Assembly (NCBI GenBank): GCA_011192125.1
Contig: DUEL01000005.1
Location: forward strand, 1,512 to 65,511
DNA from: Thermoflexia bacterium
Lineage (GTDB): Bacteria; Chloroflexota; Anaerolineae; B4-G1; DUEL01
Length of the DNA stretch: 64,000 nucleotides
Direction of reading: 5' to 3'
The notes below the pieces were generated by a model. The model had not been told where the DNA came from. It did no database searches and worked only from the letters and a program-made list of their open reading frames with translations. Each line of letters begins with the position of its first letter. Within the stretch, counting starts at the first letter, position 1. This document shows positions 2,471 through 57,800 of this stretch, one piece after another. The position numbers and the translations under genes were made by a program.

Positions 2471-2506
2471 GCCCTCACCCCACGAGCAGTAACGGGGTGA
2501 GGGCCG
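2471..2506 (+). terminator. Perfect 12-bp stem hairpin after the small secreted protein gene
   Basis: GGCCCTCACCCC-N12-GGGGTGAGGGCC. No clear U-tract. Confidence 0.35.
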
Positions 2507-2585
2507 GAGCAGAGACGCAGAGAGCGCAGAGAACAGATGGGGAAAATGTAGAACCCCGCGCCCTGCGCGCCTCTGCGGTTGCGGG
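2506..2585. repeat. Family-A palindromic intergenic repeat (CAGAGRCRCAGAG ... CTCTGCG)
   Basis: Left arm agcagagacgcagagagcgcagag and right arm cgcgcctctgcggtt. Same architecture as the 11 other copies. Confidence 0.6.
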
Positions 2586-2725
2586 AAACCTGATAGCCCT
2601 ATACCAGACGCCTGCCACTGGAGTTTGGACAAGAGTTCGGACATACCCAATCCGCCCCGCCGTAAACAGGCGGGGCTGGCGGGAAATCGATCCAGCACCG
2701 GCTGAAGAGCCGGTGCTGGACGAGC
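2581..2725 (-). repeat. Family-B two-hairpin repeat element (copy 1 of 3, minus orientation)
   Basis: The reverse complement aligns with 31985-32110 and 36755-36840: CCAGCACCGGCTCTTCAGCCGGTGCTGG ... GATTTCCCGCCAGCCCCGCCTGTTTACGGCGGGGCGGATTGGG. Confidence 0.65.
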
Positions 2726-2782
2726 CGGGAAAGGGTTTCATTGGCGATGTCCGAACTCCTGTCCGAAGGTCAGCTGTCGACC

Positions 2783-2811
2783 TTGACACGCTAAGGGTTC
2801 ACCTGTATACT
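2783..2811 (+). promoter_or_regulatory. Sigma70-like promoter TTGACA-N17-TATACT upstream of the large membrane protein gene
   Basis: Exact -35 consensus and a near-consensus -10 with 17-bp spacing. Confidence 0.45.
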
Positions 2812-2985
2812 GGAACCGGTGGAAGCATTTGGGGAAGTTCCTCTACGACATCTCCTCTGATCTAGAGGCGAACGTAGCCACTTCTCCGCTGTGCACCTCT
2901 CTGCGGTTCCCCGCCCTGGATGCCTCCCAGGCGCCTCTTCGTGAGGGCCATCAGACCGTTCTCGCCACGCTAGGAGGCAAAAGCG

Positions 2986-6172: not shown

Positions 6173-6246
6173 TTCACCACAGAGGCGCAGAGGGCGCAGA
6201 CTCCTTACATTTTCTGCGTCCGCGTTCTCCGCGCCTTTGTGGTTCG
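6173..6246. repeat. Family-A palindromic intergenic repeat
   Basis: caccacagaggcgcagagggcgcaga ... tctgcgtccgcgttctccgcgcctttgtggtt. Confidence 0.65.
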
Positions 6247-15725: not shown

Positions 15726-15748
15726 AGTTTCACCGCAGAGGCACCGAT
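15726..15748. repeat. Family-A repeat, half copy (left arm only)
   Basis: tttcaccgcagaggcaccgatc. Confidence 0.4.
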
Positions 15749-18390: not shown

Positions 18391-18440
18391 GTGGTTTCCA
18401 TCGCAGAGATGCGGAGAGCACAGAGGCTTGTTGCAGCGCC
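18391..18440. repeat. Family-A repeat, partial copy
   Basis: catcgcagagatgcggagagcacagagg. Confidence 0.4.
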
Positions 18441-18506
18441 CCCTGCACCCTCCCGGTGACCCTGGTGTCCGGACTCTTGTCTCAACCTCAGCGCTCCACC
18501 TTGCCC

Positions 18507-22601: not shown

Positions 22602-22670
22602 TGTTTCACCGCAGAGATGCAAAGGGCGCAGAGGTTTCCACGGTTTTTCGCAAAGGTAAAGAGACGATGC
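22602..22670. repeat. Family-A repeat (degenerate right arm)
   Basis: tttcaccgcagagatgcaaagggcgcagagg. Confidence 0.5.
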
Positions 22671-24095: not shown

Positions 24096-24101
24096 GCCCT
24101 C

Positions 24102-24167
24102 CACGAATAGAGCACGAATGCACGAATGGCGGCCTCACCCATTCGTGCATTCGTGCTCTATTCGTGG
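24102..24167. terminator. Perfect 28-bp inverted repeat (family C, CACGAAT/ATTCGTG triple repeats) between convergent genes
   Basis: CACGAATAGAGCACGAATGCACGAATGG-cggcctcac-CCATTCGTGCATTCGTGCTCTATTCGTG. Confidence 0.6.
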
Positions 24168-24203
24168 ACGGCGGCGGGTGCGACCTTGTCTCCCCGCGAC
24201 CCG

Positions 24204-25529
24204 CTAGAGCCGTTCCTCCGGCCCGACGGGCAGCGCCACCAGGCCGCTGATCACCTTGGGATAGAAGTCGGTGGACTTCTGCGGCATCCGCTCGCTGGCG
24301 GCGGTGCAAGCCCGCACCTGCTCGATGCGGGTGGGGTTCATCAGCAGCAGGAACTGGGCCTCCCCCTTGTCCACCGCCGCAAAACCGGGCGTGGGATCGC
24401 GCAGGTAGTCGATGTTCTCCTTCCGCTTGACCGCCTCTTTGTCGATCCCCAGCACCCGCTCGATGAACAGTTCGTGCAGGACCACCACGTCCAGCATCCG
24501 CCAGTCGGCAGCGCGGTCGGGCAGGAGTTGGGCCATCACGCCTGGATCGCGCAACTCCAGCACCGCGTAGGCCCCGTCGTAGAAGCCGAAGCGCGGGTGG
24601 TCGGGCCTAGCCTCCGCCAGCGCCTTCTCCACCGCCGCCCGGTCCGAAGCGGGCGTCACCTCGAAGTACTCCTTCGCCTTCTCCAACGCCGCCTTCCCAT
24701 CCATCCGGGTGTAGGAGTGGATGAGCCGGTGGGTGGGGAGGATCACAAGACCCGGATCGCTCATACTGACCAGCGTGACCATCGTGTAGTTGAAGGCGGC
24801 GTCGGCGGGGGCGTCCGGGTATTTCTGGCGCATCTCGTCCCGGAAGGTGAGCGCGGTCTCGTACCGGTGGTGCCCGTCGGCGATGATCAGGTTCCGCTTG
24901 GGGGCCATCTCCTCTGCCACAGCCCGGATCACCTCCGGATCGTCCACCACCCAGAACCGCTGTTCCACCGCGCTCTCGATCACCTGCTCCCGCGCGACGA
25001 TCGGCTCGTGCGTCTCCAGATAGGACTGGAGAATGGAGTTGACACGGTTCTCGTCGTCGGGGTAGAGGATGAAGATGTGCCCCCAGGCCGTCTCGGTGGC
25101 GCGGAACAGGTTCAGCCGATCCACCTTGGGACCGGAGAGGGTCCGCTCGTGGGGGAGGATCACCCCCTCGTCGAAACGGGTCAGTTGGAGCGCGGCGCTG
25201 AACCCCCGGCGGGTGCGGGTCTCGCCGGTCGGCGTGGTGTAGGTCTGCTCCAGGACGTAGATCGCCGGCCGCTCCTCCCGCATCAACACTCCCTCCGCCA
25301 ACCAGGTACGGGCGTAGCAGCGAGCGCGGGTATAGACATTGTCCGTCTCGCTATCCCACGGCGTCGCCTTGCCCCGGATGATGCGGACGAAGTTGTAGGG
25401 GCTCAGTTCGTAGTACCGCTCCTGCTGCGGCTCGTGGATGCGGTCGTAGGGCTGGGTGATCACCTTCGAGAGGTCGCCGACCTTCTCGACGTTGTAGCGC
25501 AATCCGCGAAACGGTTTCACAATCGCCAT
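24204..25529 (-). CDS. DUF1015 family protein
   Basis: N-terminal MAIVKPFRGLRYN typical of DUF1015. True start is MAIVKPF; the ORF extension MSSVSLWW comes from the repeat element. Confidence 0.7.
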   Translation of the reverse strand: MAIVKPFRGLRYNVEKVGDLSKVITQPYDRIHEPQQERYYELSPYNFVRIIRGKATPWDSETDNVYTRARCYARTWLAEGVLMREERPAIYVLEQTYTTPTGETRTRRGFSAALQLTRFDEGVILPHERTLSGPKVDRLNLFRATETAWGHIFILYPDDENRVNSILQSYLETHEPIVAREQVIESAVEQRFWVVDDPEVIRAVAEEMAPKRNLIIADGHHRYETALTFRDEMRQKYPDAPADAAFNYTMVTLVSMSDPGLVILPTHRLIHSYTRMDGKAALEKAKEYFEVTPASDRAAVEKALAEARPDHPRFGFYDGAYAVLELRDPGVMAQLLPDRAADWRMLDVVVLHELFIERVLGIDKEAVKRKENIDYLRDPTPGFAAVDKGEAQFLLLMNPTRIEQVRACTAASERMPQKSTDFYPKVISGLVALPVGPEERL

Positions 25530-25549
25530 CGTCTACCTCCATTACGTAG

Positions 25550-25632
25550 TTCCACCACAGAGACACAGAGGACACAGAGTTTTTCTCTTGTTTTTTGCGT
25601 TTCTCAGCGCACTCTGTGCCTCTGTGGTTTTT
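25550..25632. repeat. Family-A palindromic intergenic repeat (full copy)
   Basis: ccaccacagagacacagaggacacagag ... ctctgtgcctctgtggtt. Confidence 0.7.
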
Positions 25633-25639
25633 TGTTCCA

Positions 25640-26323: not shown

Positions 26324-26391
26324 AGTCTACTCCTTATCTCATAGCTCCGGCTGGTGCGACGCACCTTGAAGTACGTCGCACCAGCCCTACC

Positions 26392-27306: not shown

Positions 27307-27319
27307 TACCTCCTTAGAC

Positions 27320-29588: not shown

Positions 29589-29632
29589 CGACCACAGAGG
29601 GACAGAGTTTTTCTCTGTGTCTCTGTGGTGGA
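29589..29632. repeat. Family-A repeat (short full copy) between convergent genes
   Basis: accacagagggacagag-tttttct-ctgtgtctctgtggtgg. Confidence 0.65.
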
Positions 29633-31341: not shown

Positions 31342-31358
31342 GCGCTCCCTCCCCCTCT

Positions 31359-31984: not shown

Positions 31985-32110
31985 CTGCCTCCTCTCGCCT
32001 GGTCCAGCACGGCTCTTCAAGCCAGTGCTGGACCGATTTCCCGCCAGCCCCGCCTGTTCACGGCGAGGCGGATTGGGCACGCCCGAACTCCTGTCCAAGC
32101 TCCAAATTTA
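31985..32110 (+). repeat. Family-B two-hairpin repeat element (copy 2)
   Basis: ctggtccagcacggctcttcaagccagtgctggaccgatttcccgccagccccgcctgttcacggcgaggcggattgggcacgcccgaactcctgtccaag. Confidence 0.65.
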
Positions 32111-33175: not shown

Positions 33176-33182
33176 CCCAGAC

Positions 33183-33416: not shown

Positions 33417-33596
33417 ATCCCTCTCTCCTGAAAAATCCCCCATCCAGTCCTGACACTTCGGAAGGAAACCTCCCGCAGGTTCCCTACGGCGCACCCGAGC
33501 GCGCCGTAAAGGGTACCCTGGCTGGTCACTTGCGCTGTCAAGCCGTGCATTAACCTGCGGGAGGTTGGTAAACTGTCAGGTAGCCAGATCTCCCAT

Positions 33597-34616: not shown

Positions 34617-34664
34617 TGCGGAGGAATTATACCGGGATTGAGGAGGAAGGGGAAGTCGACCGGT

Positions 34665-36335
34665 TCAGGGCCCGCCCGCCTGGCTGATGATCACCCGTTT
34701 CGTCGCTACGTACCACCGGTTGACCGTCGCGAACCGGTCCGAGGGGTACATCAACGGCCCAATCTGTACTCCCTTGACCTTGTTGCTCACGCCGTAAGTA
34801 TAGACCGGATGGAAGAGCAGAATGGCAGGCACCTCGTCGGCAAACACCTGCTGAAACTCCCGATAGAGGTCGATCCGCTGCTGCCGATCCGTCACGATGC
34901 GGGCCGTCTCGATGATCTCGCTGATCCGCCGGTGATCGAGCCCGGCGTAGTTCTGCCCCTGGGTGATCTCCGTCTGATGCCACAACGGGTACGGATCGGG
35001 GTCGCCCGGCAACGCCAGATCCACCAACGCCGCCTGATACGACCGCTGCTCCAGCGCATCCCGTACGTCCACAGGACCGGTGGTCACAACGGTGACCCCG
35101 ATACCCAGTTCCCCCCATTGGCGGGCGACCTCCTCGGCGATCGCCTCGCGCAGGGGATCGGTGGAGGCCAAGAGTTCGAACGAAAGGGGCCGACCATCCT
35201 TGGTTCGGACGCCACCCTGAGGTGGCAACGTCCATCCGGCCTCGTCCAGGAGCGCCTGTGCCTGCTCTGGGTCATAGTCGTACCGACGGATCTGTGGGTC
35301 GTAAGCCCACGTCCCCGCGACGATGGGGCTGTGGGCCACGATCGCCTGCCCGTCCAGCAGATCCTGAACGATCGCCTGACGATCCAGCCCGTACAGGAGA
35401 GCCTGCCGCACCTCCACCTCTTGGAAGAATGGAAGATCGTCGGCTTTCAGCAGGTTGAGGTAGATCAGTGAGTATTGGGCCAACTGAGCCGAGTAGAGGT
35501 TTAGATCATCGTCCTGCCGGGCCTCCGGGAGGTCCTGCAACTCTACCCGCCCCACCCCCTCCACATCGCCGTTCCGGTACGCCCGAAAGGCGGTGGAGTA
35601 CGAAGGGTAGAAGCGGAACCGGAAGTAATCCACCAGGGGACCGGGTCGGAAATACCGGCGGTTACGCTCCAGAAGAACGGACCGGATCTCCCCATCCGCC
35701 GTCTCCACCTCTACCACCTGGAAGGGTCCCGTCCCTACCGGCTTCAAGTTGAACTCCAGCGCGGGGAGATCCGCGCTGGAAACTCCTTCGAGCAGATGGG
35801 CCGGGAGGAGGCCGATGGTCGTGTAGTCGAGAAAAGGGGCGAAGGGTTCGGGAAGGATCATCCGCACCGTGTAGTCGTCCACCTTCGCGATCTTGACCGT
35901 CCGCCACAGCGCACCGACGTCGGGCGGCCCCGGATAGTCGGGGGCCTGGAGAAGCCGGACCGTAAACACGACGTCGTCGGCTGTGAACGGCACCCCGTCG
36001 TGCCAGTAGACGTTGTCACGAAGGTGGAAAACATAGGTCAGCCCATCCAGAGAGACCTCCCAGGACTCCGCCAGGTCTGGCACCACATCGCCCTGCCCGT
36101 TGAACCGAGTCAGGCCATTGAAGACCAGAGCACACAGGTCCCGATCCGCTTCGTTATACGCGCTGAGAAGCGGGTTGATGTAGTGGGGAACGCCGGCGAC
36201 GCCCTCCACATAGGTCCCACCGGCGGTCGGAACCTGCGTCGTGGTATAGGTCAACGCCAGATAGGTCAAGAGGATGGCCACCAGGGCCATCCCCACGCCG
36301 ATGAGCAGTACCTGCCAGCGGACGGTCCTTCGCAT
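34665..36335 (-). CDS. ABC transporter substrate-binding protein, family 5 (peptide/nickel)
   Basis: Signal anchor; SBP_bac_5 signature region ...NPL...D..L.FNGL....G.VVPDLAESWEVS.DG.TY.F.LR..V.WHDG. Confidence 0.85.
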   Translation of the reverse strand: MRRTVRWQVLLIGVGMALVAILLTYLALTYTTTQVPTAGGTYVEGVAGVPHYINPLLSAYNEADRDLCALVFNGLTRFNGQGDVVPDLAESWEVSLDGLTYVFHLRDNVYWHDGVPFTADDVVFTVRLLQAPDYPGPPDVGALWRTVKIAKVDDYTVRMILPEPFAPFLDYTTIGLLPAHLLEGVSSADLPALEFNLKPVGTGPFQVVEVETADGEIRSVLLERNRRYFRPGPLVDYFRFRFYPSYSTAFRAYRNGDVEGVGRVELQDLPEARQDDDLNLYSAQLAQYSLIYLNLLKADDLPFFQEVEVRQALLYGLDRQAIVQDLLDGQAIVAHSPIVAGTWAYDPQIRRYDYDPEQAQALLDEAGWTLPPQGGVRTKDGRPLSFELLASTDPLREAIAEEVARQWGELGIGVTVVTTGPVDVRDALEQRSYQAALVDLALPGDPDPYPLWHQTEITQGQNYAGLDHRRISEIIETARIVTDRQQRIDLYREFQQVFADEVPAILLFHPVYTYGVSNKVKGVQIGPLMYPSDRFATVNRWYVATKRVIISQAGGP

Positions 36336-36401
36336 CTGGCTCTGCCTTCAGGCAAACGAAGAGGGCCCCGGTCAACCCGGAGCCCCGATTTTCTCTGGGA
36401 T

Positions 36402-36635
36402 TTACCCCAGAGACTCGGCAACCAGCGCGTTGACGAGGGCGATGATAAAGAAGACCACGGAGAGGACGATGGAGATGATGAACAACGTCTTCTCTACGCC
36501 TCGCCGCTTGCGGCGGAACGAGGTCTGCGTACCACCAAACACGCCGCCAAGACCGCTGCTCTGCGTCTGCACGACGATGACGACGATCAGCGCAACACCG
36601 ACGATGATCTGTGCGATATTGAGATAAGTAGCCAT
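36402..36635 (-). CDS. secG: Preprotein translocase subunit SecG
   Basis: 77 aa, two TM helices, Gly-rich GLGGVFGG loop. Confidence 0.8.
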   Translation of the reverse strand: MATYLNIAQIIVGVALIVVIVVQTQSSGLGGVFGGTQTSFRRKRRGVEKTLFIISIVLSVVFFIIALVNALVAESLG

Positions 36636-36754
36636 TCCTCCACTTTACCCCCAGACGAATGCCGATGCATTATATCACGGTCCAGGTCACCGGACAAGTT
36701 AAGGAGGCTGACCTTTCGGACAGGGGTTCGGACATCGGGTGTGAGGCTCCTTCT

Positions 36755-36840
36755 CGGCGGGTCTAGCACCGGTTCTTCAGACCGGTGCTAGGCCGATTTC
36801 CCGCCGGCCCCGCCTGCTTACGGCGGGGCTGGTAAGGTGA
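36755..36840 (+). repeat. Family-B two-hairpin repeat element (copy 3)
   Basis: gggtctagcaccggttcttcagaccggtgctaggccgatttcccgccggccccgcctgcttacggcggggc. Confidence 0.6.
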
Positions 36841-36852
36841 CCGCCCCCTCAC

Positions 36853-38640
36853 CTACAAAGACCGATGCTCCCGAACCGCCTCCAGCGCCAGGTCGATGAA
36901 CGCCTCCACCGACATCGCCCCTGGCACCTCACCATCCCGGCGGCGCAGGTTGACCTGTCCGGCCTCCATCTCCCGGTCGCCGATGACCAGCATATACGGC
37001 ACCTTCTCCATCTGCGCGTCCCGGATCTTGGCCTGCATCCGGTCGCTGGAGTCGTTCACCTCCACACGGAGGCCGACCTCCCTGAGCCGCCTCGCCACAT
37101 CGTAGGCGTAGTCCACGTGCCGGTCGGCGATGGGGATGAGGACCGCCTGGACGGGGGCCAGCCAGACGGGGAAGGCCCCGCCGTAGTGCTCCACCAGGAT
37201 GCCGAAGAACCGCTCCAGACTGCCCAGCAGCGCCCGGTGGACCATGTAGGGCCGGTGCTCCTTCCCGTCCTCCCCCACGTAGGTCATATCGAACCGCTCC
37301 GGCAGGTTGAAGTCGAACTGGATCGTCGTGCACTGCCAGAGCCGGCCGAGGGCGTCCTTGATCTTGATGTCGATCTTGGGACCGTAGAACGCCCCGCCTC
37401 CCTCGTCCACCTCGTAAGGCAGTCCCTCCGCCTCGATCGCCTTGCGCAGGCTCTCCTGCGCCTGCTCCCACCGCTCCGGCTCCCCCACGTGCTTCTCCGG
37501 CATCGTCGCCAGATAGACCTCGAACTCCTCGAAGCCGAAGGCGCGGAGCAGATCCAGCGAGAACCGCAGCACCTCCAGGACCTCGTCCTCGATCTGCTCC
37601 GGCGTGCAGAAGATATGGGCGTCGTCCTGGGTGAAGCCCCGGACCCGGAGCAGGCCGTGCAGGACCCCGCTCCGCTCGTACCGGTACACCGTCCCCAGTT
37701 CCGCCCAGCGCATCGGCAGTTCCCGATAAGAACGACGACGGCTCTTGTACATCAGGATGTGGAACGGGCAGTTCATCGGCTTGATGAAGTACTCCACCCC
37801 TTCGACGTCCATCGGCGCGTACATACTCTCCCGGTAGAAGTCCAGGTGACCGGACCGCTCCCAGAGTTGTGCCCGGCCGATGTGGGGGGTGAAGACGATC
37901 TCGTAGCCGCCCTTCCGGTGCTGCTCCCGCCAGAAGTCCTCGATCACCTGGCGGATGCGGCCACCCTTGGGATGCCAGTAGGCCAGCCCGGGACCGCCCT
38001 CCTCGTGGAAACTGATCAGGTCCAACTCCTTGATCAACCGCCGGTGGTCCCGCTTCTCCACCTCCTCCCGCCAGGCCAAGTACTGCCTCAGTTGCTTAGG
38101 CGTCTCCCAAGCGGTGCCGTAGATCCGCTGCAGCATCGGCCGCCGCTCGTCCCCCCGCCAGTACGCCCCGGCGACGCTGAGCAACTTGATCGCCTTGGGG
38201 TTGATCTCTTTGGTGTTGGCAACGTGGGGGCCGCGACATAGGTCAACGAACGGACCGTGCCGATAGATAGAGAGGACCGGCTTCCCCTCCACCGGCCGCC
38301 CGTGCTCGTCCATCCCGCCGGAGAGGATCTCGTCGATCAACTCCAGTTTGTAGGGCTGGTCGGCGAAGAGGCGACGGGCCTCCTCCTCGTCGATCTCCTC
38401 GTAGACGAAATCGTACCCCTCGGCGATGATCTCCCGCATCCGGGCCTCGATCTCCTCCAGGTCCTCCGGAGTCAACGGCCGGGGGAGGTCGAAATCGTAG
38501 TAGAAGCCGTTCTCAATGGCCGGACCGATGGCCAGTTTGGCACCAGGGAACTTCTCCAGCACCGCCTGGGCCATCACGTGGGCCGCCGAGTGACGGATGC
38601 GCTCCAGCCGACCGTTCTCCTGTTCCTTCTTCTTCGACAT
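36853..38640 (-). CDS. thrS: Threonyl-tRNA synthetase
   Basis: TGS/editing and class II core motifs (HRALLGS..., GPKIDIK); start at the ATG 38640 preceded by a GGAGG RBS. Confidence 0.92.
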   Translation of the reverse strand: MSKKKEQENGRLERIRHSAAHVMAQAVLEKFPGAKLAIGPAIENGFYYDFDLPRPLTPEDLEEIEARMREIIAEGYDFVYEEIDEEEARRLFADQPYKLELIDEILSGGMDEHGRPVEGKPVLSIYRHGPFVDLCRGPHVANTKEINPKAIKLLSVAGAYWRGDERRPMLQRIYGTAWETPKQLRQYLAWREEVEKRDHRRLIKELDLISFHEEGGPGLAYWHPKGGRIRQVIEDFWREQHRKGGYEIVFTPHIGRAQLWERSGHLDFYRESMYAPMDVEGVEYFIKPMNCPFHILMYKSRRRSYRELPMRWAELGTVYRYERSGVLHGLLRVRGFTQDDAHIFCTPEQIEDEVLEVLRFSLDLLRAFGFEEFEVYLATMPEKHVGEPERWEQAQESLRKAIEAEGLPYEVDEGGGAFYGPKIDIKIKDALGRLWQCTTIQFDFNLPERFDMTYVGEDGKEHRPYMVHRALLGSLERFFGILVEHYGGAFPVWLAPVQAVLIPIADRHVDYAYDVARRLREVGLRVEVNDSSDRMQAKIRDAQMEKVPYMLVIGDREMEAGQVNLRRRDGEVPGAMSVEAFIDLALEAVREHRSL

Positions 38641-38935
38641 TTCCCCTCCTTGCAACACAGAGTCTCTTAAAGAAAACCCCCGCGCCCCTTGGGGCGCGGG
38701 GGTCTCCCACGCGGTTCCACCCAAGTTCGGCGGTGAAGCGACTCACCGCCGCACTCTGAGGCTGTAACGGGCCTTCCCGGAGCCCCATACTCTCGCCGAA
38801 GCGATTTCAAGGGCCCACTCCCGGGGGGTTTTCCCGACCGTCCGGTCAAGGGGGCTTCCAGCCACGACCCCCTCTCTCTGGGACCTTCTCAGGCCGGTAC
38901 TCGTCCCGGTCAACGCTTTCACACTCTCGATTGTG
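38641..38935 (-). promoter_or_regulatory. T-box leader (Thr-specific) upstream of thrS
   Basis: T-box sequence AACUUGGGUGGAACCGCGUGGGAGACC with a UGGA bulge (discriminator U of tRNA-Thr). Overlapping terminator CCCGCGCCCC-AAGG-GGCGCGGGGG + UUUUCUUU. Stem I region contains ACC (Thr codon). Confidence 0.75.
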
Positions 38936-38940
38936 GCCTC

Positions 38941-38969
38941 ATTATACTCCTCTTTTGCCTTCTGTCAAC
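38941..38969 (-). promoter_or_regulatory. Consensus sigma70 promoter TTGACA-N17-TATAAT for the thrS T-box leader
   Basis: Perfect -35 and -10 hexamers with 17-bp spacing on the minus strand. Confidence 0.6.
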
Positions 38970-38983
38970 CCCAATGGTATAAT
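38955..38983 (+). promoter_or_regulatory. Divergent overlapping promoter TTGCCT-N17-TATAAT on the plus strand (toward repeat A and the zinc-ribbon gene)
   Basis: Shares sequence with the minus-strand promoter; consensus -10. Confidence 0.35.
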
Positions 38984-38984
38984 C

Positions 38985-39067
38985 ACAACCGCAGAGACAC
39001 AGAGGACGCAGAGGTAAACCCTTTTTCTTTACCTTTACTCACCTCTGCACCCTCCGTGCCTCTGCGA
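38985..39067. repeat. Family-A palindromic repeat
   Basis: caaccgcagagacacagaggacgcagagg ... cctctgcaccctccgtgcctctgcg. Confidence 0.65.
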
Positions 39068-39101
39068 TAAGACAGGGCTCGGATCATCGATCCGCCCAAA
39101 C

Positions 39102-39611
39102 TTGGACAAAGGAGCGAGGACGGATATGGAGAACATCCTGGAGATCGCTCGCCAGTTAGTCGTCTGGCTCGCGTTGATCACCGGCGTCGTGTTTACCGCC
39201 CTGCACGGTGGGGCGATCATCTGGACCTTTCGGGATATGCGTGCCCGGTCGCGGGACGTGCTGGCCTGGATTGTCGCTACCCTGATGGTAGCCCTCCTAC
39301 CCCTGGTGGGCCTGGTAGTCTATCTGATGCTCCGTCCCAGGGAAACCCTCGCCGAGGCCTATGAACGCTCGCTGGAGCAGGAAGCCCTGCTCCAGGCGAT
39401 TGAGGAACCGGAGTACTGCCCCGGCTGCGGCCAGCGGGTGAGGTCGGATTACATCCTCTGCCCCACCTGCCACACCCGTCTCAAGCAGCCCTGCCCCTCC
39501 TGCGGCCGCGCCCTCGACCTCTCCTGGTCGGTCTGCCCGTACTGCGGCACCGCCGTGACCCCCCAGGTAGTGGAGCCCGTCACGCCGCCGCAGCAAGAAG
39601 CGACGGCTTAG
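39102..39611 (+). CDS. Membrane protein with a C-terminal double zinc-ribbon (start may be the internal Met MENILEIAR)
   Basis: Two TM helices; CPGCG...CPTC...CPSCG...CPYCG. Confidence 0.5.
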   Translation: MDKGARTDMENILEIARQLVVWLALITGVVFTALHGGAIIWTFRDMRARSRDVLAWIVATLMVALLPLVGLVVYLMLRPRETLAEAYERSLEQEALLQAIEEPEYCPGCGQRVRSDYILCPTCHTRLKQPCPSCGRALDLSWSVCPYCGTAVTPQVVEPVTPPQQEATA

Positions 39612-39619
39612 ACGAGGTT

Positions 39620-39702
39620 TTTTTCACCACAGAGGCACAGAGGGCACAGAGTTTCTCAAAGATAGAGAGACCTCCGTGCCCTCTGTGTCTCTGTGGTTTC
39701 CT
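39620..39702. repeat. Family-A palindromic repeat (full copy) between convergent genes
   Basis: caccacagaggcacagagggcacagag ... ccgtgccctctgtgtctctgtggtt. Confidence 0.7.
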
Positions 39703-39706
39703 TCTT

Positions 39707-41131
39707 TCACACCTCGCCGGTCTCCCCCACCACGTGCACCTTCAGCATATTGGTCCGCCCTTCCCCCCCGAAGGGAATCCCCGCCGTGAGCACCACCCGG
39801 TCGCCCTTGCGCACGAAGCCCCGCTCGTAGGCGGCGCGGACCATCAGGACGACCATCTCGTCGGTGGTGGCGAAGCGGGGGACCCGCACCGGGGTGACCC
39901 CCCAGACCATCGTCAGCCGCATCAGGGTGCGGGGGTTGGGGGTGGCGGCGACGATCGGCACCCCCGGACGGTGCCGGGCGACCATCCGGGCGGTGGTGCC
40001 GGACATCGTGGCAGTGAGGATCGCCCGTGCCCCTACCTCGGCGGCGATCTCCACCGTCGCGTGGCTGATCGCCTCGGTCACCGTGGGGGATGGGGGGCGC
40101 TCCGCGCCGTATAGGAACCGGCCCAGCGGCAGGTGGGACTCGGCGTGCTCGCAGAGGGAGGCCATCGTCTCCGCCGCCTCCACCGGATACCTCCCCACCG
40201 CCGTCTCACCGGAGAGCATCACCGCGTCGGTCCCGTCCAGCACCGCGTTGACCACGTCGGAGGCCTCGGCCCGGGTCGGCACCGGCCGCTCCATCATCGA
40301 CTGCAACATCTGCGTGGCGGTGATGACCGGTTTCCCCACCCGGTTGCAGGCCCGGATGATTCGCTTCTGGTAGAAGGGAACCTCCTCCGGCGACGTCTCA
40401 ACCCCCAGATCGCCCCGAGCCACCATAATCCCGTCGGCGGCCTCCAGAATGTCGCTAAACGTGTCCACCGCCTCCGCCTTCTCGATCTTGGCGACGATGG
40501 GCAGGTCGCTCCCCGCCGCGTCCAACAGCCGACGGAGTTCCCGCACGTCCTCCGCCGAGCGGACGAAGGAGAGGGCAACGAAATCCACCCCCTGCTCCAG
40601 GGCGAACCGGAGGTCCTCCCGATCCTTCGGGGTGATGGCGGGGATGTGGGACGTGCCGCCTGGCAGGTTGACCCCCTTGTGGGAGGTCAGCCGGCCGCCG
40701 ACGACCACCCGACAGCGCACCCCCTCCTCATCCCGGCCCTCGACCCGCAACTCCAGCCGGCCGTCGTCGAGGAGAATCCGCTGGTCGGGTTGCAGCCCCT
40801 GCAACGCCTCGGGGTGAGGGACCGGGATGCGGCCCGGGGAAAAAGAAGAGGAGGTCAAGACAACGACCTCCCCTTCCTGCAACACAATCCCCTCCTGGGG
40901 CAGATCCCCTACCCGCAATTTCGGCCCCTGCAGGTCCGCCATCACCGCGACCAAGCAGCCCTCCTCCTCGGCGACCCGGCGGACGGTCTGGATGGTGCGG
41001 GCGTGGGTGGCGTGGTCGCCGTGGGAGAAGTTGATCCGCGCGATGCTCATCCCGGCACGGACCAACGCCCGCACCACCTCGGGGTCCTCCGAGGCTGGGC
41101 CGAGGGTGCAGATGATCTTGGTCCGAGGCAT
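39707..41131 (-). CDS. pyk: Pyruvate kinase
   Basis: MPRTKIICTLGPAS, MVARGDLG, and the C-terminal regulatory domain. The ORF extension MPSVSLWW is a repeat artefact. Confidence 0.9.
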   Translation of the reverse strand: MPRTKIICTLGPASEDPEVVRALVRAGMSIARINFSHGDHATHARTIQTVRRVAEEEGCLVAVMADLQGPKLRVGDLPQEGIVLQEGEVVVLTSSSFSPGRIPVPHPEALQGLQPDQRILLDDGRLELRVEGRDEEGVRCRVVVGGRLTSHKGVNLPGGTSHIPAITPKDREDLRFALEQGVDFVALSFVRSAEDVRELRRLLDAAGSDLPIVAKIEKAEAVDTFSDILEAADGIMVARGDLGVETSPEEVPFYQKRIIRACNRVGKPVITATQMLQSMMERPVPTRAEASDVVNAVLDGTDAVMLSGETAVGRYPVEAAETMASLCEHAESHLPLGRFLYGAERPPSPTVTEAISHATVEIAAEVGARAILTATMSGTTARMVARHRPGVPIVAATPNPRTLMRLTMVWGVTPVRVPRFATTDEMVVLMVRAAYERGFVRKGDRVVLTAGIPFGGEGRTNMLKVHVVGETGEV

Positions 41132-41144
41132 ATCGCTCACTTTA

Positions 41145-41228
41145 TCCCACCACAGAGACACGGAGGGCACAGAGACTCTCCAAACCCTGAGAAAAATCTC
41201 TGTGCTCTCTGTGCCTCTGTGGTTTTCC
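41145..41228. repeat. Family-A palindromic repeat
   Basis: caccacagagacacggagggcacagag ... ctctgtgctctctgtgcctctgtggtt. Confidence 0.7.
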
Positions 41229-42539
<1,311 letters not shown>

Positions 42540-42544
42540 CTAGG

Positions 42545-42608
42545 TTTCACCACAGAGACACGGAGAGCACAGAGGTTCCCTTTCTTGTCCTCTGTGTCTC
42601 TGTGGTCC
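42545..42608. repeat. Family-A palindromic repeat
   Basis: caccacagagacacggagagcacagagg ... cctctgtgtctctgtggt. Confidence 0.7.
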
Positions 42609-42610
42609 TT

Positions 42611-43708
42611 TTATTCTAACCCCATCCCTTTATACAGCCGGTCGAAGTCGAAATGCTCGGCCATCAGCGATTCGAACTTCTCCAACTTCTCCGGCTGCCC
42701 TAGTCGGGTTTTGCCGAAGACCCGCTCGATGGCCTCCACGGTCTCCAGCGTGTTCTCCCGCACCAGGAGGACCGGCACCCCGGCCTCCTCGGCACGGCGA
42801 AGGACCTCCGGCTGGGGGCGCAGATGGCCGGTGAGGATCAGACAGGCGGTGGCCGTCTCCAGCGCCGCCAACTGGATGTCCGTCCGGTCGCCGCCGGTGA
42901 TCACCGCCTTGGGGGCAGGGATCCGCCGCATCCGGGGCAGCGCCTGGTCCACACTCATCGCCCCCACGACCAGGTTCTCGATCAACACGTCGGTCTTCTC
43001 CGGCAGCGCCAGGAACTGGGCCCGCAACACCTGCGCCAGTTCCCCCACGCTGATGGCCTGGAGTTCCTCCTGCCGGGGGAGGACGCCCAGCACCGCGATC
43101 CCCCGCTCCTCCAGGCAGGGGCGAGCGACCTCGGTCACGAACTCCTGGCTCTCCTCCGGCACCGCGTTGATGAGGAGCCCCAGCAGCCGCTTCCCCAGCC
43201 GCAGGTTCGCCACCTCACAGTCGTCCACCAGGCTCATCTCGTTGCGGAAGCGGATCACGGCCAGCACCGGCACGTCCAGCGCTTCGGACACGTCGATGGG
43301 GCCCAGGCCGATGCCGACCCCCTCCCGGAGCGAGGCCCCGCCTTCCAGGATCATCACGTCCTTCCCCGTCGACGCCTCCTCATAGGCAGCCCGGACCTCG
43401 GCGATCAGATCGCGGGCGGAGCAGCCGCAGAGGGTGTCGCGCAACAGCGCGGGGGTGAGGACGACCCCCACCAGCGTGTGGGGTGGCTCCCGCAGCCCCA
43501 GCACCCGACGCACGAACTCGGCATCCTCGTCCAGCGCCCGCCCCGGCATCGGCTCCCAGGGTTGGGTCGACAGGGGCTTGAAATAGCCGACCTGGTAGCC
43601 GTCCTGCTGCAGCCGCCGCCCAACCGCCAGGCAGACGGCTGTCTTACCGCTGAAGGTGTGTAGAGAGGTAACGTACAAGGCTTTCATTACTTCCTCCGCG
43701 TGCAACAA
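42611..43708 (-). CDS. Pta-N-terminal-like protein (P-loop AAA_26 + DRTGG domain), standalone
   Basis: N-terminus LYVTSLHTFSGKTAVCLAV; DRTGG-type motif ITGGDRTDIQLAALE...LILTG. Confidence 0.6.
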   Translation of the reverse strand: MLHAEEVMKALYVTSLHTFSGKTAVCLAVGRRLQQDGYQVGYFKPLSTQPWEPMPGRALDEDAEFVRRVLGLREPPHTLVGVVLTPALLRDTLCGCSARDLIAEVRAAYEEASTGKDVMILEGGASLREGVGIGLGPIDVSEALDVPVLAVIRFRNEMSLVDDCEVANLRLGKRLLGLLINAVPEESQEFVTEVARPCLEERGIAVLGVLPRQEELQAISVGELAQVLRAQFLALPEKTDVLIENLVVGAMSVDQALPRMRRIPAPKAVITGGDRTDIQLAALETATACLILTGHLRPQPEVLRRAEEAGVPVLLVRENTLETVEAIERVFGKTRLGQPEKLEKFESLMAEHFDFDRLYKGMGLE

Positions 43709-43739
43709 GTGCTAGCAACCAGCAGCCAGCAACTAGCAA

Positions 43740-45851
43740 CTAGCCCAACACCAACCGCATATCCAGCGCCACCGCCCCGCGCCCCTCGTCAAAGACCATC
43801 AGCGGGTTGATGTCCAACTCGACGATCTCGGGGAAGTCGGTGACCAACTGGGAGATCCGACACAGGGCATCCACCATCGCCTCGTGGTCGGCCGGCGGCT
43901 CGCCGCGCACCCCCTCCAGGAGCGGGTAGGCCCGGATCTCGCGGATCATCTCCTCCGCCTCTTGACGGCTGAAGGGAGCCACGCGGAAGACCACGTCCTT
44001 CAGCGCTTCCACGTAGATCCCGCCCAGCCCGAAGGCCACCAGCGGACCAAACTGGGGATCGCGGCTCATCCCGATCAGCACCTCCCGCCCGCCGGGGACC
44101 ATCTTCTGGACCAGACACCCCCAGATACGCGCGTCGGGCACGTACCGTGTGGCCCGGTACATGATCAGATCGAACGCGTCCCGCACGTCCTCCGCCGACC
44201 GGAGGTTCAGTTTCACGCCGCCCACGTCGGTCTTGTGCAGGATGTCCGGCGAGGCGACCTTGAGGACCACCGGGTATCCCATCTCCTCCGCCGCCTCGAT
44301 CGCCTCCTCGGGCGTTGCCGCCAGGCGGGAGGGCGGGACCGGGAAGCCATAGGCCTCCAGGATCGCCCGCGCCTCGGCATCGCCGATGCTCACGCGCCCC
44401 TCGGAGCGGGCCTTCTCCAGCACCTTCCGCACCGCATCCCGGTCCACCTCGAACCGCTCCGGCGGGTGGATCGGTCGCTCCTGCTCCCTCCGGTAGGCGA
44501 CCATCGCTGCCAGGGCCTCGGCCGCCCGCTCCGGGAAGGGGTAGTTGGGAACCCCGTACTGTCGGAGGACATCCACCCCGGCCTTGATGCGGGCCTCGCC
44601 CATAAAGCACCCCAGGATCGGCTTGTCGGTCTCCTGGGCCGTACGGCCGACGATGTGGGCCGTCTCTTCGATCTGGGTCATCGCCTGCGGCGTGACGATG
44701 ACGATGACCGCGTCCACCCCTGGGTCGGCCAACACCAGCCGAAGGGCGTGCTCGTACCGGTCGGCGAGGGCGTCTCCCAGCACGTCCACCGGGTTGGCGG
44801 CGGAGGCCGCGCTGGGCAGGTCGGCCATCAGCGCTTCAATGGTCTCCGGCTTCAGCCGGGCCAGCCGCAGCCCAGCGTGCTCCAGCGCGTCGGTCGCCAG
44901 GATCCCCGGGCCACCGGCGTTGGTCACGATAGCGACCTGATCCCCGGCCGGGAGCGGTTGGTAGGCAAAGGCGCGGGCGTAATCGAAGAGCCGCTCCATC
45001 GACCCGGCCCGGATGACCCCCGCCTGGCGGAAGGCCGCCCGGTAGGCCGCCTCCGACCCGGCCAGACTCCCTGTGTGGGAAGAGACCGCGCGGGAGCCGG
45101 CCCGGGTCACGCCGGACTTGACCGCCACCACCGGCTTCTTCCGCGTCACCCGGCGGGCGACCTCCATAAAGCGCTGCCCGTCCTTCAACCCCTCGACGTA
45201 GATGAGGATCACCCGGGAGTCCGGATCGTCCTCCCACGCCTCCAGCAGGTCGATCTCGTCCACATCCGCCTTGTTCCCCAGGCTGACGAAGCGGGAGAAG
45301 CCGATCCGCCCCGCCAGGGCCATGTCCAGCACCGCCGTCCCCAACGCGCCGGACTGGGACATGAAGGCCATCGGCCCGGCGGGGGGCATCCCCGCAGCAA
45401 AGGTAGCGTTGAGGGGAGTAGCGGTGTCGATCACCCCCAGGCAGTTGGGGCCGACCAGCCGGATGTTGTAGCGGCGGGCGATTTCGATCAGTTCCTGCTC
45501 CCGCTCCAACCCCTCCCGACCGGCCTCCCGGAACCCTGCGCTGATGACCACCACCGCCGGGACCCCCTTCTGCCCGCATTGTTCCAGGACGGCGGGGACG
45601 AAGGGGTACGGGATGACGATGACCGCCAGATCGACCGGCTCCGGGACGTCTAGAATGCTGGGGTAGGCTTTCAGACCGAGGATCTCATCCGCCTTAGGGT
45701 TGATCGGGTAGAGGGCCCCTTTGAAACCGCCCTCTTTCAGGTTGGCAAGCACCGCGTACCCCAGTTTCTCCGGGTCGCGAGACGCGCCGATGACGGCGAC
45801 GGAAGATGGACGGAAGAACGATTCTAGCATACCTGTTCCCCTGACAACCAC
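43740..45851 (-). CDS. ADP-forming acetyl-CoA synthetase (fused alpha-beta, NDP-forming acyl-CoA synthetase family). Start may be the internal Met at 45830.
   Basis: CoA-binding N-terminus SVAVIGAS...; succinyl-CoA-synthetase-like domains; C-terminal ATP-grasp. Confidence 0.8.
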   Translation of the reverse strand: MVVRGTGMLESFFRPSSVAVIGASRDPEKLGYAVLANLKEGGFKGALYPINPKADEILGLKAYPSILDVPEPVDLAVIVIPYPFVPAVLEQCGQKGVPAVVVISAGFREAGREGLEREQELIEIARRYNIRLVGPNCLGVIDTATPLNATFAAGMPPAGPMAFMSQSGALGTAVLDMALAGRIGFSRFVSLGNKADVDEIDLLEAWEDDPDSRVILIYVEGLKDGQRFMEVARRVTRKKPVVAVKSGVTRAGSRAVSSHTGSLAGSEAAYRAAFRQAGVIRAGSMERLFDYARAFAYQPLPAGDQVAIVTNAGGPGILATDALEHAGLRLARLKPETIEALMADLPSAASAANPVDVLGDALADRYEHALRLVLADPGVDAVIVIVTPQAMTQIEETAHIVGRTAQETDKPILGCFMGEARIKAGVDVLRQYGVPNYPFPERAAEALAAMVAYRREQERPIHPPERFEVDRDAVRKVLEKARSEGRVSIGDAEARAILEAYGFPVPPSRLAATPEEAIEAAEEMGYPVVLKVASPDILHKTDVGGVKLNLRSAEDVRDAFDLIMYRATRYVPDARIWGCLVQKMVPGGREVLIGMSRDPQFGPLVAFGLGGIYVEALKDVVFRVAPFSRQEAEEMIREIRAYPLLEGVRGEPPADHEAMVDALCRISQLVTDFPEIVELDINPLMVFDEGRGAVALDMRLVLG

Positions 45852-55892: not shown

Positions 55893-55925
55893 CAGTAACC
55901 CCACGCAGAACACGGAACACCTAGA

Positions 55926-56933
55926 ATGAAAGAGATCCTACCCGACCTGACCCGCTGGCTCGCCTCCGGCGAGCGCGTCGCCCTGGCGACGGTGATCCGC
56001 GCTCAGGGTCCCTCCCCGCGACCGGTGGGGGCCTGCCTGGCGGTCACGGCCTCCGGTAAGATGGCCGGCTCCGTCAGCGGGGGGTGTGTGGAGGGAGCCG
56101 TCTTCCGGGAGGCCCAGGCGGTGCTGGAGGGCGCACCCCCCAAGCGGCTCCGGTACGGCGTGGCGGACGAAGGGGGCTGGGAGGTGGGGCTGGCCTGCGG
56201 GGGGACCATCGAGATCTACCTGGAGCCGCTGGCCCCCATTCACGAGCGGCTCCTGGAGGCCCTGCGGGCCGATGAGACGGTGGCCCTGGTCACTCGGCTC
56301 GACGGCGGCGGTCACCTCCTGGCCTGGCCGGACGGACAGATGGAGGGGGATCGCTCTCTGGCCGATGAACTGGAGACCGCTTTCCCAGGCCCCCTGGCCG
56401 AACTCCGGCCGTCCCCCCAGGGCGACCGCTTCGTCCAGGTCTTCGCCCCGCCCCCCACCCTCACCATCGTCGGCGCGGTCCACCTGGCCCAGCCGCTGGT
56501 CCGCCTGGCCCAGGTGCTGGGCTTCCGCGTGAGGGTGGTGGACGCGCGGCGGGTCTTCGCCACGCGGGACCGGTTCCCCACGGCGGACGAACTGGTGGTC
56601 GCTTGGCCGAAGGAGGCGCTGGGACCGGACCACCTGCGCCCGTCCGACGCCCTGGTCGTCCTCACCCACGACCCCAAGTTCGACGTGCCCGCGCTGGAGA
56701 TCGCGCTGAGAAGCCCCGTGGGCTACATCGGCCTCCTCGGATCGCAAAGCACCCAGGCCCGCCGGAAGAAGGCGTTGAAAGAGCGGGGATTTACAGAAAA
56801 GGACCTGGCCCGCATCCACGGGCCGGTGGGGCTGGACGTGGGGAACTCGCCGGAGGAAATCGCCCTGGGCATCCTGGCCGAGATCGTTGCCCATCGGAAC
56901 CGCACGATCCGCACTCCACGCCCCCCACCCTGA
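55926..56933 (+). CDS. XdhC/CoxI family molybdoenzyme maturation factor
   Basis: XdhC_CoxI N-terminal domain (GSVSGGCVEGAV) and C-terminal Rossmann-like domain. Confidence 0.75.
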   Translation: MKEILPDLTRWLASGERVALATVIRAQGPSPRPVGACLAVTASGKMAGSVSGGCVEGAVFREAQAVLEGAPPKRLRYGVADEGGWEVGLACGGTIEIYLEPLAPIHERLLEALRADETVALVTRLDGGGHLLAWPDGQMEGDRSLADELETAFPGPLAELRPSPQGDRFVQVFAPPPTLTIVGAVHLAQPLVRLAQVLGFRVRVVDARRVFATRDRFPTADELVVAWPKEALGPDHLRPSDALVVLTHDPKFDVPALEIALRSPVGYIGLLGSQSTQARRKKALKERGFTEKDLARIHGPVGLDVGNSPEEIALGILAEIVAHRNRTIRTPRPPP

Positions 56934-56981
56934 ACCCCATCCTTTGCATCCTGCGCCCTTACAACCCACAGAGGTGTTCCT

Positions 56982-57758
56982 ATGCTAACCCCAGAACAGC
57001 GAGAGCGTTTCGCCCGCCAATTGGTGCTGGAAGGGATCGGCGAGGAAGGGCAGGAACGGTTAGCGGCTGCCCGCGTGCTCGTCGTCGGCGCAGGAGGGCT
57101 GGGCTCTGCCGCCTGCTTCTATCTGGCCGCGGCGGGGGTGGGCTCCCTCGGCATCGTGGACGCCGACGTGGTGGCCCTTTCCAACCTCAACCGGCAGATC
57201 CTCCACGCCACCGCCGACCTGGGGCGGCCGAAGACCGAATCCGCCGCCGAGACCCTCCGGGCGCTGAACCCCGACCTGGAGGTGGTCCAATATCCGGAGC
57301 GGCTGACCCCCGCGCGGGCCGAAGCGCTGGCGACGGAGTACGACCTGGTGATGGAGTGCTCCGACAACTTCGAGACCAAGTTCCTCGTCAACGCGGCCTG
57401 CGTGCAGGCGGGGAGGCCGTTGGTGTGGGCCTCCGTGCTGGCGTGGGAGGGGCAGATGTCGGTGGTGGTGCCCGGTGAGGGACCGTGCTATCGGTGCCTC
57501 TTCCCACCCCACCTCGACCTGAGCGGCGCGCCGACGGCGAAGGAGGTGGGTATCCTGGGAGCCGTCGCCGGGACATTCGGCGCGCTGGAGGCGGTGGAGG
57601 CGGTGAAGGTGCTGCTGGGGATCGGGAAGCCGTTGGTGGGCCGGCTGCTGGCCTGGGACGGTCTCACCGCAACCTTCGACCTGATCGCCTTCGAGCGCCA
57701 ACCAGGATGTCCAGTATGCCATCACAGGGACAGAGGGAGCACGGAGAGATCACCCTGA
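56982..57758 (+). CDS. moeB: ThiF/MoeB-family adenylyltransferase (molybdopterin-synthase adenylyltransferase-like)
   Basis: VLVVGAGGLGS; CxxC...CxxC zinc motif at the C-terminus. Confidence 0.8.
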   Translation: MLTPEQRERFARQLVLEGIGEEGQERLAAARVLVVGAGGLGSAACFYLAAAGVGSLGIVDADVVALSNLNRQILHATADLGRPKTESAAETLRALNPDLEVVQYPERLTPARAEALATEYDLVMECSDNFETKFLVNAACVQAGRPLVWASVLAWEGQMSVVVPGEGPCYRCLFPPHLDLSGAPTAKEVGILGAVAGTFGALEAVEAVKVLLGIGKPLVGRLLAWDGLTATFDLIAFERQPGCPVCHHRDRGSTERSP

Positions 57759-57800
57759 ACAAAACGGCTTCTGTGCCTTCTGCACCGCTGCGGTGGAATT
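57721..57800. repeat. Family-A repeat (degenerate copy) overlapping the end of moeB
   Basis: cacagggacagagggagcacggagag ... cttctgtgccttctgcacc. Confidence 0.45.

Follow-up and report, generated by a model that had tools for sequence, protein, structure and literature searches.

Heptad-built intergenic palindromes of a Thermoflexia bacterium belong to a cross-phylum family that usually flanks genes for predicted GxxExxY nucleases

Analyzing 64,000 nucleotides from a Thermoflexia bacterium (Chloroflexota; contig DUEL01000005.1 of assembly GCA_011192125.1; the whole stretch is called the window), we found that Family A, an abundant palindromic intergenic repeat of this DNA, belongs to a cross-phylum family of palindromes built of seven-base units (heptads), and that such palindromes are the usual flanks of genes encoding GxxExxY proteins, which are predicted to be small nucleases. 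Copies that carry no gene vary in presence among close relatives, and they degenerate to half copies. The Family A copies are probably gene-less members of a palindromic element family linked to GxxExxY, comparable to REPINs (hairpins formed by paired repetitive extragenic palindromes, REPs) or MITEs (miniature inverted-repeat transposable elements), and the whole looks like a very widespread miniature mobile element that has gone undescribed. An earlier note on the window, made from the sequence alone, had read Family A as a REP/MITE-like element or as a lineage-specific terminator or RNA-stability motif; this interpretation is partly supported by our results, and the link to GxxExxY nuclease genes was overlooked in it.

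Results

Family A copies in the window

Family A occupies 13 sites in the window, nine of which are two-armed hairpins and four of which are half copies (15728, 18399, 22604 and 58554). The earlier note had listed 12 copies, two of them (15726 and 18391) marked as halves, and had described two inverted arms around a variable loop of 7-40 nt. The places of all 12 were confirmed, but the copy placed at 22602 is only a half copy and a thirteenth site (58554-58577) had been missed; two arms are found at nine of the sites only, and the loops, although variable as described, range from 5 to ~35 nt. The arms are 26-29 nt long, form imperfect palindromes and carry a TT[C/A]ACC cap followed by two or three CACAGAG heptads. 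A pattern search found the core CACAGAGRCAC with at most one mismatch 16 times in the window against 2.25 expected. When arms were defined as C[AG]CNGAG heptads with spacers of 1-3 nt, those of at least two heptads numbered 13 (0.43 expected) and those of at least three heptads numbered 8 (0 expected). An arm profile built with nhmmer on 195 arms from other genomes recovered every site of the earlier note (best E 1e-10) except the degenerate copy at 57721, which was recovered by pattern match instead. An inverted-repeat scan of the window reported hairpins with arms of 17-27 nt at 25554, 29585, 39626, 41149 and 42549, and the predicted RNA hairpin energies of the copies were -24 to -57 kcal/mol, in agreement with the long hairpins that had been foreseen.

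Placing the copies on a gene map based on GC content at third codon positions (GC3) and cross-checked against Pfam revealed that 12 of the 13 sites are intergenic, often occupying nearly the whole gap, the exception being 57721 at the 3' end of a gene. Tandem gaps hold the sites at 6173, 22604, 25551, 41148, 42545 and 58554, convergent gaps those at 15728, 29591 and 39622, and divergent gaps or 5' untranslated regions (UTRs) those at 18399 and 38987. The almost exclusively intergenic location in gaps of all types that the earlier note had described was thus confirmed, and so was its copy in a 5' UTR (38987). Its spurious N-terminal extensions of open reading frames (ORFs) were also seen, for example at pyruvate kinase, whose ORF was listed from 41170 while the Pfam domain and the orthologue gene call begin at 41131. 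The DRTGG-domain gene, enolase and pyruvate kinase form a minus-strand tandem separated by the hairpins at 42545-42606 and 41148-41223.

The arm sequence is shared across phyla

Over the 195 arms the consensus is TT[C/A]-ACC-ACAGAG-R-CACAGAG-RR-CACAGAG. The purine-rich arm is essentially T-free, the spacing within an arm is irregular (8 then 9 nt), and free variation, between A and G, is confined to the spacers and to heptad position 4. The purine-rich arm (e.g. 39626-39651) also reads as a series of Shine-Dalgarno-like motifs (AGAGG, GGAG, GAGGG), one every 8-9 nt, its partner arm being the complement.

Searching one genome from each species for exact matches to the 26-nt pattern ACCACAGAGRCACRGAGRRCACAGAG located it, among the matches listed, in more than 119 genome stretches from more than 15 phyla, at a local GC content of 35-74%. 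The carriers among these matches included Acidobacteriota (many of them Pyrinomonadaceae), Planctomycetota, Chloroflexota, Verrucomicrobiota, Myxococcota (three complete Sorangium genomes among them), Cyanobacteria (Nostoc, Prochloron), Bacteroidota, Chlamydiota, Gemmatimonadota, Nitrospirota, Armatimonadota and several classes of Pseudomonadota, as well as one Bacillota metagenome-assembled genome (MAG) and two archaeal MAGs. Given that the pattern holds ~48 bits and that ~2^40 positions were searched, less than one chance match is expected by estimate. In a Bacteroides finegoldii record, a full hairpin lies between murF/alr and tatA. The arm was further found in 61 viral-contig stretches, suggesting a possible route between phyla, and the collections of plasmids and cultured phages gave just 1 and 2 partial matches, indicating that these are not the main reservoirs. 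The distribution over more than 15 phyla and viral contigs contradicts the idea of a lineage-specific motif. The ACC ends of paired arms point outward in 53 cases, as they do in the window, and 61 of 223 arms have no partner inside 600 nt. At one locus common to three Nostoc genomes (L033, L026 and L035), a lone CACAGAG arm lies in the loop of an AT-rich palindrome, GGACTTCCAAATAAA ... TTTATTTGGAAGTCC.

Heptad palindromes are the usual flanks of GxxExxY genes

Among arm pairs lying 100-600 nt apart, three enclose an intact ORF of ~125-134 aa (L048, L019 and L043) and one encloses a decayed ORF (L037). The enclosed intact ORFs tested encode a protein of the GxxExxY family (TIGR04256, E 2e-44; PF13366 PDDEXK_3, E 1e-43), and no other recurrent gene family or transposase was found among the genes neighbouring the arms. 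In the reverse test, a metagenome scan gave 587 confirmed GxxExxY loci, of which the best 80 were taken; 73 of them had at least 150 nt of sequence on both sides. Arms of at least three heptads flanked the gene on both sides and in outward order at 49 of these 73 loci and on one side only at 13, and a few loci showed the facing order. Further GxxExxY genes with flanking arms were found at L126, L129 and L200, among other loci. The arm consensus of Family A is identical to that of the arms around GxxExxY genes.

The heptad occurs in several variants (CACGGAG, CACAGAG, CGCAGAG, CGCCGAG, CGCGGAG, CGCAAAG, CACGAAG and CACGGAA), and the same variant is used in both arms of an element and throughout each arm. 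Left and right arms correlated with r = 0.93 at heptad position 2 and with r = 0.83 for G at position 4, whereas the correlation of the variant with flanking GC content was r = 0.22, so that GC content does not account for the matching of the arms. GxxExxY proteins from elements with the same arm variant were 63.5% identical against 61.2% for different variants, a difference that 0 of 2000 permutations reached and to which shared ancestry of some loci contributes.

Other layouts were also found: at L137, L124 and L131 the gene lies between two complete hairpins, or tandem arrays mix gene-carrying and gene-less units, and at L131 the gene-less hairpins have loops similar to the leader and trailer of the gene-carrying unit beside them. 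Gene-less hairpins outnumber gene-carrying ones by ~15 to 1 in our sample, which was selected by arms. Of two other GxxExxY genes, one from Chloroflexota (L277) has no upstream arm, its contig ending just past the gene, and that of Kallotenue (L278) has a decayed CACAAAG-type hairpin, on the downstream side only. At six loci (L129, L148, L152, L153, L119 and L051) a second, inner local hairpin stands on each side of the gene position, with mirrored loops (GGGAGATA / TATCTCCC or TTGAGAGG / CCTCTCAA); at L119 and L051 both inner hairpins are retained and the gene is lost.

The GxxExxY protein is predicted to be a minimal PD-(D/E)XK nuclease

The GxxExxY family is very large (at least 7981 clusters at E <= 1e-10). 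Searching for a solved structure related by sequence found none, and in the searchable literature GxxExxY, PF13366 and TIGR04256 receive passing mentions only; a survey of PD-(D/E)XK enzymes entered the family as "unknown", with multiple transfers between divisions. An AlphaFold model computed on a 38-sequence alignment is confident, with a pLDDT (predicted local distance difference test) of 91.5. Its best Foldseek matches were weak and were all PD-(D/E)XK nucleases, namely Cas4 SSO0001 (E 2e-3), an archaeal splicing endonuclease and the AddAB nuclease domain, and the residues of the D...ExK motif (D72, E82 and K84) are invariant in 38 of 38 sequences. The PADLOC models of anti-phage defence and the PHROGs models of phage proteins gave no match for three GxxExxY proteins. 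On the strength of the model and the motif, the protein is predicted to be a minimal PD-(D/E)XK nuclease with an intact D...ExK.

Gene-less copies are gained and decay among Thermoflexia relatives

The enolase of the window is 100% identical to that of a Thermoflexia MAG, and synteny with a Thermoflexia contig extends over part of the window. We aligned among relatives the gaps of the operon that comprises the CoA ligase, DRTGG, enolase, pyruvate kinase and zinc-ribbon genes. In L202 (enolase 97% identical) all four hairpins are found at the same sites, with changes that are independent and not compensatory and with insertions and deletions (indels) in loops and arms. In L206 and L207 (97%) a single arm is left upstream of enolase, the copy between enolase and pyruvate kinase is shortened and GC-enriched, and past pyruvate kinase only "ACCAC" is left, followed by an unrelated repeat of ~300 nt. 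In L203 (92%) three of the four sites, those corresponding to 38987 and 39622 among them, are gaps of 24-31 nt without a hairpin, the gap between enolase and pyruvate kinase being 24 nt. Given that four hairpins are present in the window and in L202, decayed in L206 and L207 and missing from three sites of L203, we concluded that they were gained in one sub-lineage and then decayed, and that the half copies of the window result from the loss of one arm. Empty and filled sites among these relatives are too diverged for the junctions to be read to the single base. The repeat that replaces most of the hairpin past pyruvate kinase in L206 (6330-6640) and L207 is GC-rich, with units CCAACCCGCGCCGCCGTGAGCGGTGCGCCGCCGTGAACCGGCGGCGCT..., and is another repeat family of this lineage.

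Junctions, tags and nesting

The flanks of element ends are inverted repeats that often extend the palindrome with lineage-specific bases. Position counts over the 195 arms gave no GTAG or CGTC tag, the outer TT[C/A]ACC cap being itself paired with GGT[G/T]AA. In a viral contig (L212) a CACGAA-type hairpin is nested in the loop of a CACAGAG hairpin, beside a phage head-protease gene.

Tests for terminators and RNA elements

A terminator consensus scan of 25000-43000 reported none of the hairpins, and on the minus strand, which is the transcribed one, no U-run follows the operon-internal copies at 25551, 41148 and 42545; the terminator reading of the earlier note was therefore rejected for operon-internal copies. 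A T-rich tail was seen at the 39622 copy only, on the plus strand. Past the hairpin before enolase, GGAGG, as the ribosome-binding site of the next gene, and the start codon come within 8 nt. No co-variation between the two arms was found at the four R positions. G-T mismatches are not in excess over A-C mismatches (57 against 61) and show no consistency within elements (p = 0.15), so that wobble pairing gives no sign of selection acting on a single transcribed strand. The Rfam search that the earlier note had recommended reported on the window, at gathering score, only a T-box and two glycine riboswitch aptamers; the hairpins matched no Rfam family, giving only sub-threshold generic miRNA-precursor matches also at permissive thresholds, and 14 related loci, GxxExxY gene flanks included, gave tRNA only. 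Neither the arm motif nor its link to GxxExxY is described in Rfam or in the searchable literature, a library that is incomplete, and curators may have noted flanking repeats.

Discussion

If the Family A copies are gene-less members of a GxxExxY-linked element family, an element end would consist of TT[C/A]ACC and two to four C-R-C-N-G-A-G heptads with spacers of 1-3 purines, the other end being its inverted copy, and the full-length form would hold one GxxExxY gene of 120-135 aa between or beside the arms. The arms would pair as a hairpin of single-stranded DNA or as a cruciform, and the nuclease may act on the arm duplex, which would promote copying into intergenic DNA, the loops of other hairpins included; gene-less hairpins would be mobilised in trans, in the manner of REPINs and MITEs. 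Once inserted, copies would decay: point changes and indels in the loops would accumulate, and the loss of an arm would leave half copies. Those transcribed in operons or UTRs would form very stable RNA hairpins, and any effect on mRNA processing or stability would be a by-product. The RNA-stability role offered in the earlier note is possible as such a side effect, but it cannot account for the distribution. We infer that the GxxExxY nuclease is the mobilising enzyme, including that of gene-less hairpins in trans, with DNA or RNA as its substrate. More tentatively, and with belief somewhat short of even, the unit of ~450-550 bp formed by two heptad arms and the 125-aa PD-(D/E)XK nuclease may be an autonomous mobile element of a new kind; horizontal transfer, partly on phages, would have carried it into most bacterial phyla and some archaea, and it would give rise to hundreds of gene-less hairpins in each genome.

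Several observations weigh against mobility of this kind. None of the 113 element ends examined showed a target duplication in the form of direct repeats. Shared loops, the sign of a master copy, were not found (loop similarity was 12.8 within the window and 12.1 to other phyla), which is an unusual pattern if a MITE multiplies from one source copy. The ACC ends face each other across ~22 nt in 21 cases, mostly in Pyrinomonadaceae, an order that the simple terminal-inverted-repeat picture does not predict. Searching the window and ~50 kb of relatives' contigs by tblastn with two GxxExxY queries found no GxxExxY gene, so that the window copies represent the gene-less form. The searchable literature gives no function or biochemical activity for any GxxExxY protein. 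Finally, the arms of the window and L202 are ~94% identical (~12 differences over ~200 positions, a by-eye count on a small sample) against 86% at third codon positions (n = 1965), the loops being ~88% identical with additional indels; this suggests some constraint or arm-to-arm repair and not pure neutral decay. Either selection or repair inside the hairpin thus gives the arms some protection, and they are clearly dispensable to the host.

One alternative is that only gene-carrying GxxExxY elements move and that the short hairpins are deletion scars, immobile remnants left after loss of the gene. The window loops, which differ entirely between copies, would suit such an origin, as would the decayed GxxExxY remnant between the arms of L037, the L131 loops that resemble the leader and trailer of the adjoining unit, and the deletions in loops and arms of orthologous copies. 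A density of ~1 copy per 5 kb would require hundreds of full insertions, nearly all followed by clean loss of the gene, and the ~15 to 1 excess of gene-less hairpins in the arm-selected sample points the same way; the four new hairpins without a gene in a 4.5-kb operon of one lineage are easier to explain by small units that move. We regard deletion scars as an unlikely origin. It is quite improbable that the hairpins are host RNA structures kept for mRNA protection, cutting by double-strand RNases or termination and merely used by GxxExxY genes, even though very stable hairpins stand between cistrons and in a 5' UTR, a comparison of the window with L202 finds the arms somewhat better conserved than synonymous sites, and the 39622 copy has its T-rich tail. 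A relative with 92% enolase identity has no hairpin at three of the four sites, relatives with 97% identity have halved or interrupted copies, the wobble signature is missing (57 G-T against 61 A-C; p = 0.15), operon-internal copies have no U-run on the transcribed strand, no Rfam family is matched, and a host structure would not need the same 26 nt in genomes of 35-74% GC.

Very improbable, too, is the proposal that the palindrome is the target of a GxxExxY homing endonuclease whose gene splits its own site, the empty hairpins being uninterrupted targets of other origin. A gene between inverted half-sites is what a dimeric PD-(D/E)XK enzyme splitting its own site would give, and arm type and protein sequence are weakly linked; yet the arm spacing of empty hairpins, from 2 to more than 100 nt, does not suit a dimer that recognises a duplex site, two complete hairpins enclose the gene at some loci (L137, L124 and L131), and the origin of hundreds of empty sites would be left unexplained. 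The earlier note had itself named unrelated low-complexity tracts as what could undo Family A, and arms made of a short repeated unit, together with other heptad tandem arrays in the window, give this idea some colour. Its chance is next to nil: a chance low-complexity origin is refuted by the arm counts (13 against 0.43 expected, with arm E values down to 1e-10), by the irregular spacing within arms (8 then 9 nt) with the conserved TT[C/A]ACC cap, and by exact matches in unrelated genomes, of which less than one is expected by estimate.

The reading of Family A as gene-less, GxxExxY-linked elements invites comparison with known systems. The REP/MITE-like character that the earlier note had proposed holds up, since the copies are palindromic, intergenic and variable among relatives and have arms in common with gene-carrying elements. 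The system works like REP/REPIN and RAYT (REP-associated tyrosine transposase) or like a MITE with its parent element, yet it is a member of neither class, given that it has no GTAG or CGTC tag, flanks no RAYT, shows no target duplication and has no DDE transposase. With the REP and REPIN sequences of E. coli (REP and bacterial interspersed mosaic elements, BIMEs) and Pseudomonas (PMC3116915, PMC3337134, PMC3733652) it shares short imperfect palindromes that are dense in intergenic DNA, frequent after genes and inside operons and often arranged as inverted pairs folding into a larger hairpin, as well as repeats that flank a cognate nuclease-type gene, and no target duplication. Unlike them, it has heptad-built arms without the conserved unpaired GTAG or CGTC tag that REPs have at one end (PMC3733652), flanks a PD-(D/E)XK GxxExxY gene and not an HUH/Y1 RAYT, and keeps an arm nearly identical across phyla where REP sequences are specific to species or genus. 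RAYTs are typically single-copy (PMC5581495), whereas GxxExxY genes appear multi-copy (tandem units at L124 and L131; at least 7981 clusters).

Like bacterial MITEs (Correia/NEMIS, RUP, Nezha), Family A has terminal inverted repeats in common with a longer gene-carrying element, short gene-less forms that far outnumber the long ones, insertion polymorphism among relatives and nested insertions; unlike MITEs, it shows no direct-repeat duplication and no DDE transposase, its internal sequence is not common to the copies, and the arms occur in either order. The intervening sequences of 23S rRNA in Leptospira and Coxiella carry a small ORF, the four-helix-bundle 'S23p', inside a long inverted repeat. 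They likewise combine an ORF of ~120-130 aa, an enclosing stem that joins the flanks and a patchy distribution across phyla, but their ORF belongs to another family and they reside in rRNA and not in intergenic DNA or operons. Free-standing PD-(D/E)XK homing endonuclease genes exist (I-Ssp6803I), and that class resembles our element in having a small PD-(D/E)XK gene as selfish DNA between the halves of a symmetric sequence; it differs from the GxxExxY units, which have no intron or intein host, variable half-site spacing and many gene-less copies. Short tandemly repeated repetitive (STRR) sequences of cyanobacteria are seven-base units in plain tandem arrays, with other unit sequences. They share with Family A tandem seven-base units in non-coding DNA and within RNA helices, and lack its heptad spacing of 1-3 nt, TT[C/A]ACC cap and inverted arms; STRR heptanucleotide repeats are mentioned in PMC2858038 and PMC4046671.

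The very large, functionally uncharacterised GxxExxY/PF13366 family is now tied to a defined DNA sequence. If the nuclease binds or cuts its own arms, the elements would be a new class of miniature mobile DNA with an end sequence unusually conserved across phyla; they would also be a common source of intergenic hairpins and spurious ORF extensions in environmental genomes and MAGs, and could serve to mark horizontal transfer. If the wider proposal is true, the 450-550 bp unit would be among the smallest autonomous mobile elements known. It would then stand beside REPIN-RAYT as a second system of this sort, independent in its mechanism and with a recognition sequence that is conserved from phylum to phylum. 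For annotation, the arm profile allows such sites to be masked and adjacent start codons to be corrected.

Other repeats and features of the window

The coordinates of the Family A sites and of one further palindrome are collected in Table 1. The latter is probably a sister variant of Family A with the same design, and CACGAA-type arms flank GxxExxY genes at L133, L192 and L150.

Table 1. Positions of Family A copies and a related palindrome in the window
Position (strand)	Feature	Context	Basis or detail
2510..2579	degenerate two-armed copy, CGCAGAG-type arms	between gene ending ~2446 and gene starting 2986	nhmmer arm match 2510-2532; 2-heptad arm; -30 (plus) and -40 (minus) kcal/mol
6173..6245	two-armed copy, GC-enriched arms	between PASTA-domain gene (stop 6150) and nusA	-41 kcal/mol
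15728..15744 (+)	half copy, outer 17 nt of one arm	convergent gap	profile E 0.11
18399..18425 (+)	half copy, one decayed arm	divergent gap or 5' region	profile E 0.014
22604..22634 (+)	half copy, one arm without partner	~30 nt 5' of ATG at 22667	profile E 0.009
24096..24172	near-perfect palindrome of CCAC-GAAT (CACGAAT) heptads		34-nt arms 97% complementary; 9-nt loop
25551..25629	full hairpin	between minus-strand DUF1015 gene and unknown minus-strand gene	-37 kcal/mol
29591..29632	short hairpin, 2 heptads per arm, 5-nt loop	fills 45-nt convergent gap	-31 kcal/mol
38987..39066	hairpin opening the 5' UTR of the zinc-ribbon gene	directly 3' of promoter-like -10 box (38955-38983)	
39622..39698	best-preserved hairpin, 26-nt arms 92% complementary	between convergent zinc-ribbon and pyruvate kinase genes	-57 kcal/mol
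41148..41223	full operon-internal hairpin	between enolase and pyruvate kinase	-50 kcal/mol
42545..42606	hairpin	between DRTGG-domain gene and enolase	one arm shortened by deletion relative to orthologous copy in L202
57721..57796	degenerate two-armed copy	supplies last codons and stop of ORF 56982-57758	-29 kcal/mol
58554..58577 (-)	additional half copy (TTTCACCACAGGGACACGGAGAAC)		profile E 0.01

A second repeat family, TTGGACARGAGTKCGGAC, gave 6 matches in the window against 0.27 expected, arranged as inverted pairs ~90-105 nt apart; its places are 2625-2766, 31956-32098, 18467-18484 and 36716-36733. The zinc-ribbon gene has a similar sequence, TTGGACAAAGGAGCGAGGAC, in its 5' UTR (~39085), and L202 and L203 have conserved it. 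Between the CoA-ligase and DRTGG genes (43714-43744) lies a plain tandem array of GGTTGCT/AGCAACC heptads in 4.4 copies; L202 has ~6 copies at the orthologous place and L206 and L207 have ~14, indicating that the length of the array changes quickly.

The T-box leader (38687-38922, minus strand; 105.6 bits) lies upstream of a threonyl-tRNA synthetase gene and is preceded by a perfect TTGACA-16-TATAAT promoter at 38968-38941. The glycine riboswitch is a tandem of two aptamers (28464-28662, minus strand; 42 and 67 bits) located upstream of minus-strand genes for an aminotransferase, a 2-hydroxyacid dehydrogenase and a DUF1015 protein. In the Thermoflexia relative L081, a CACAGAG hairpin with an AT-rich loop of 90 nt lies upstream of a gene orthologous to the riboswitch-associated one.

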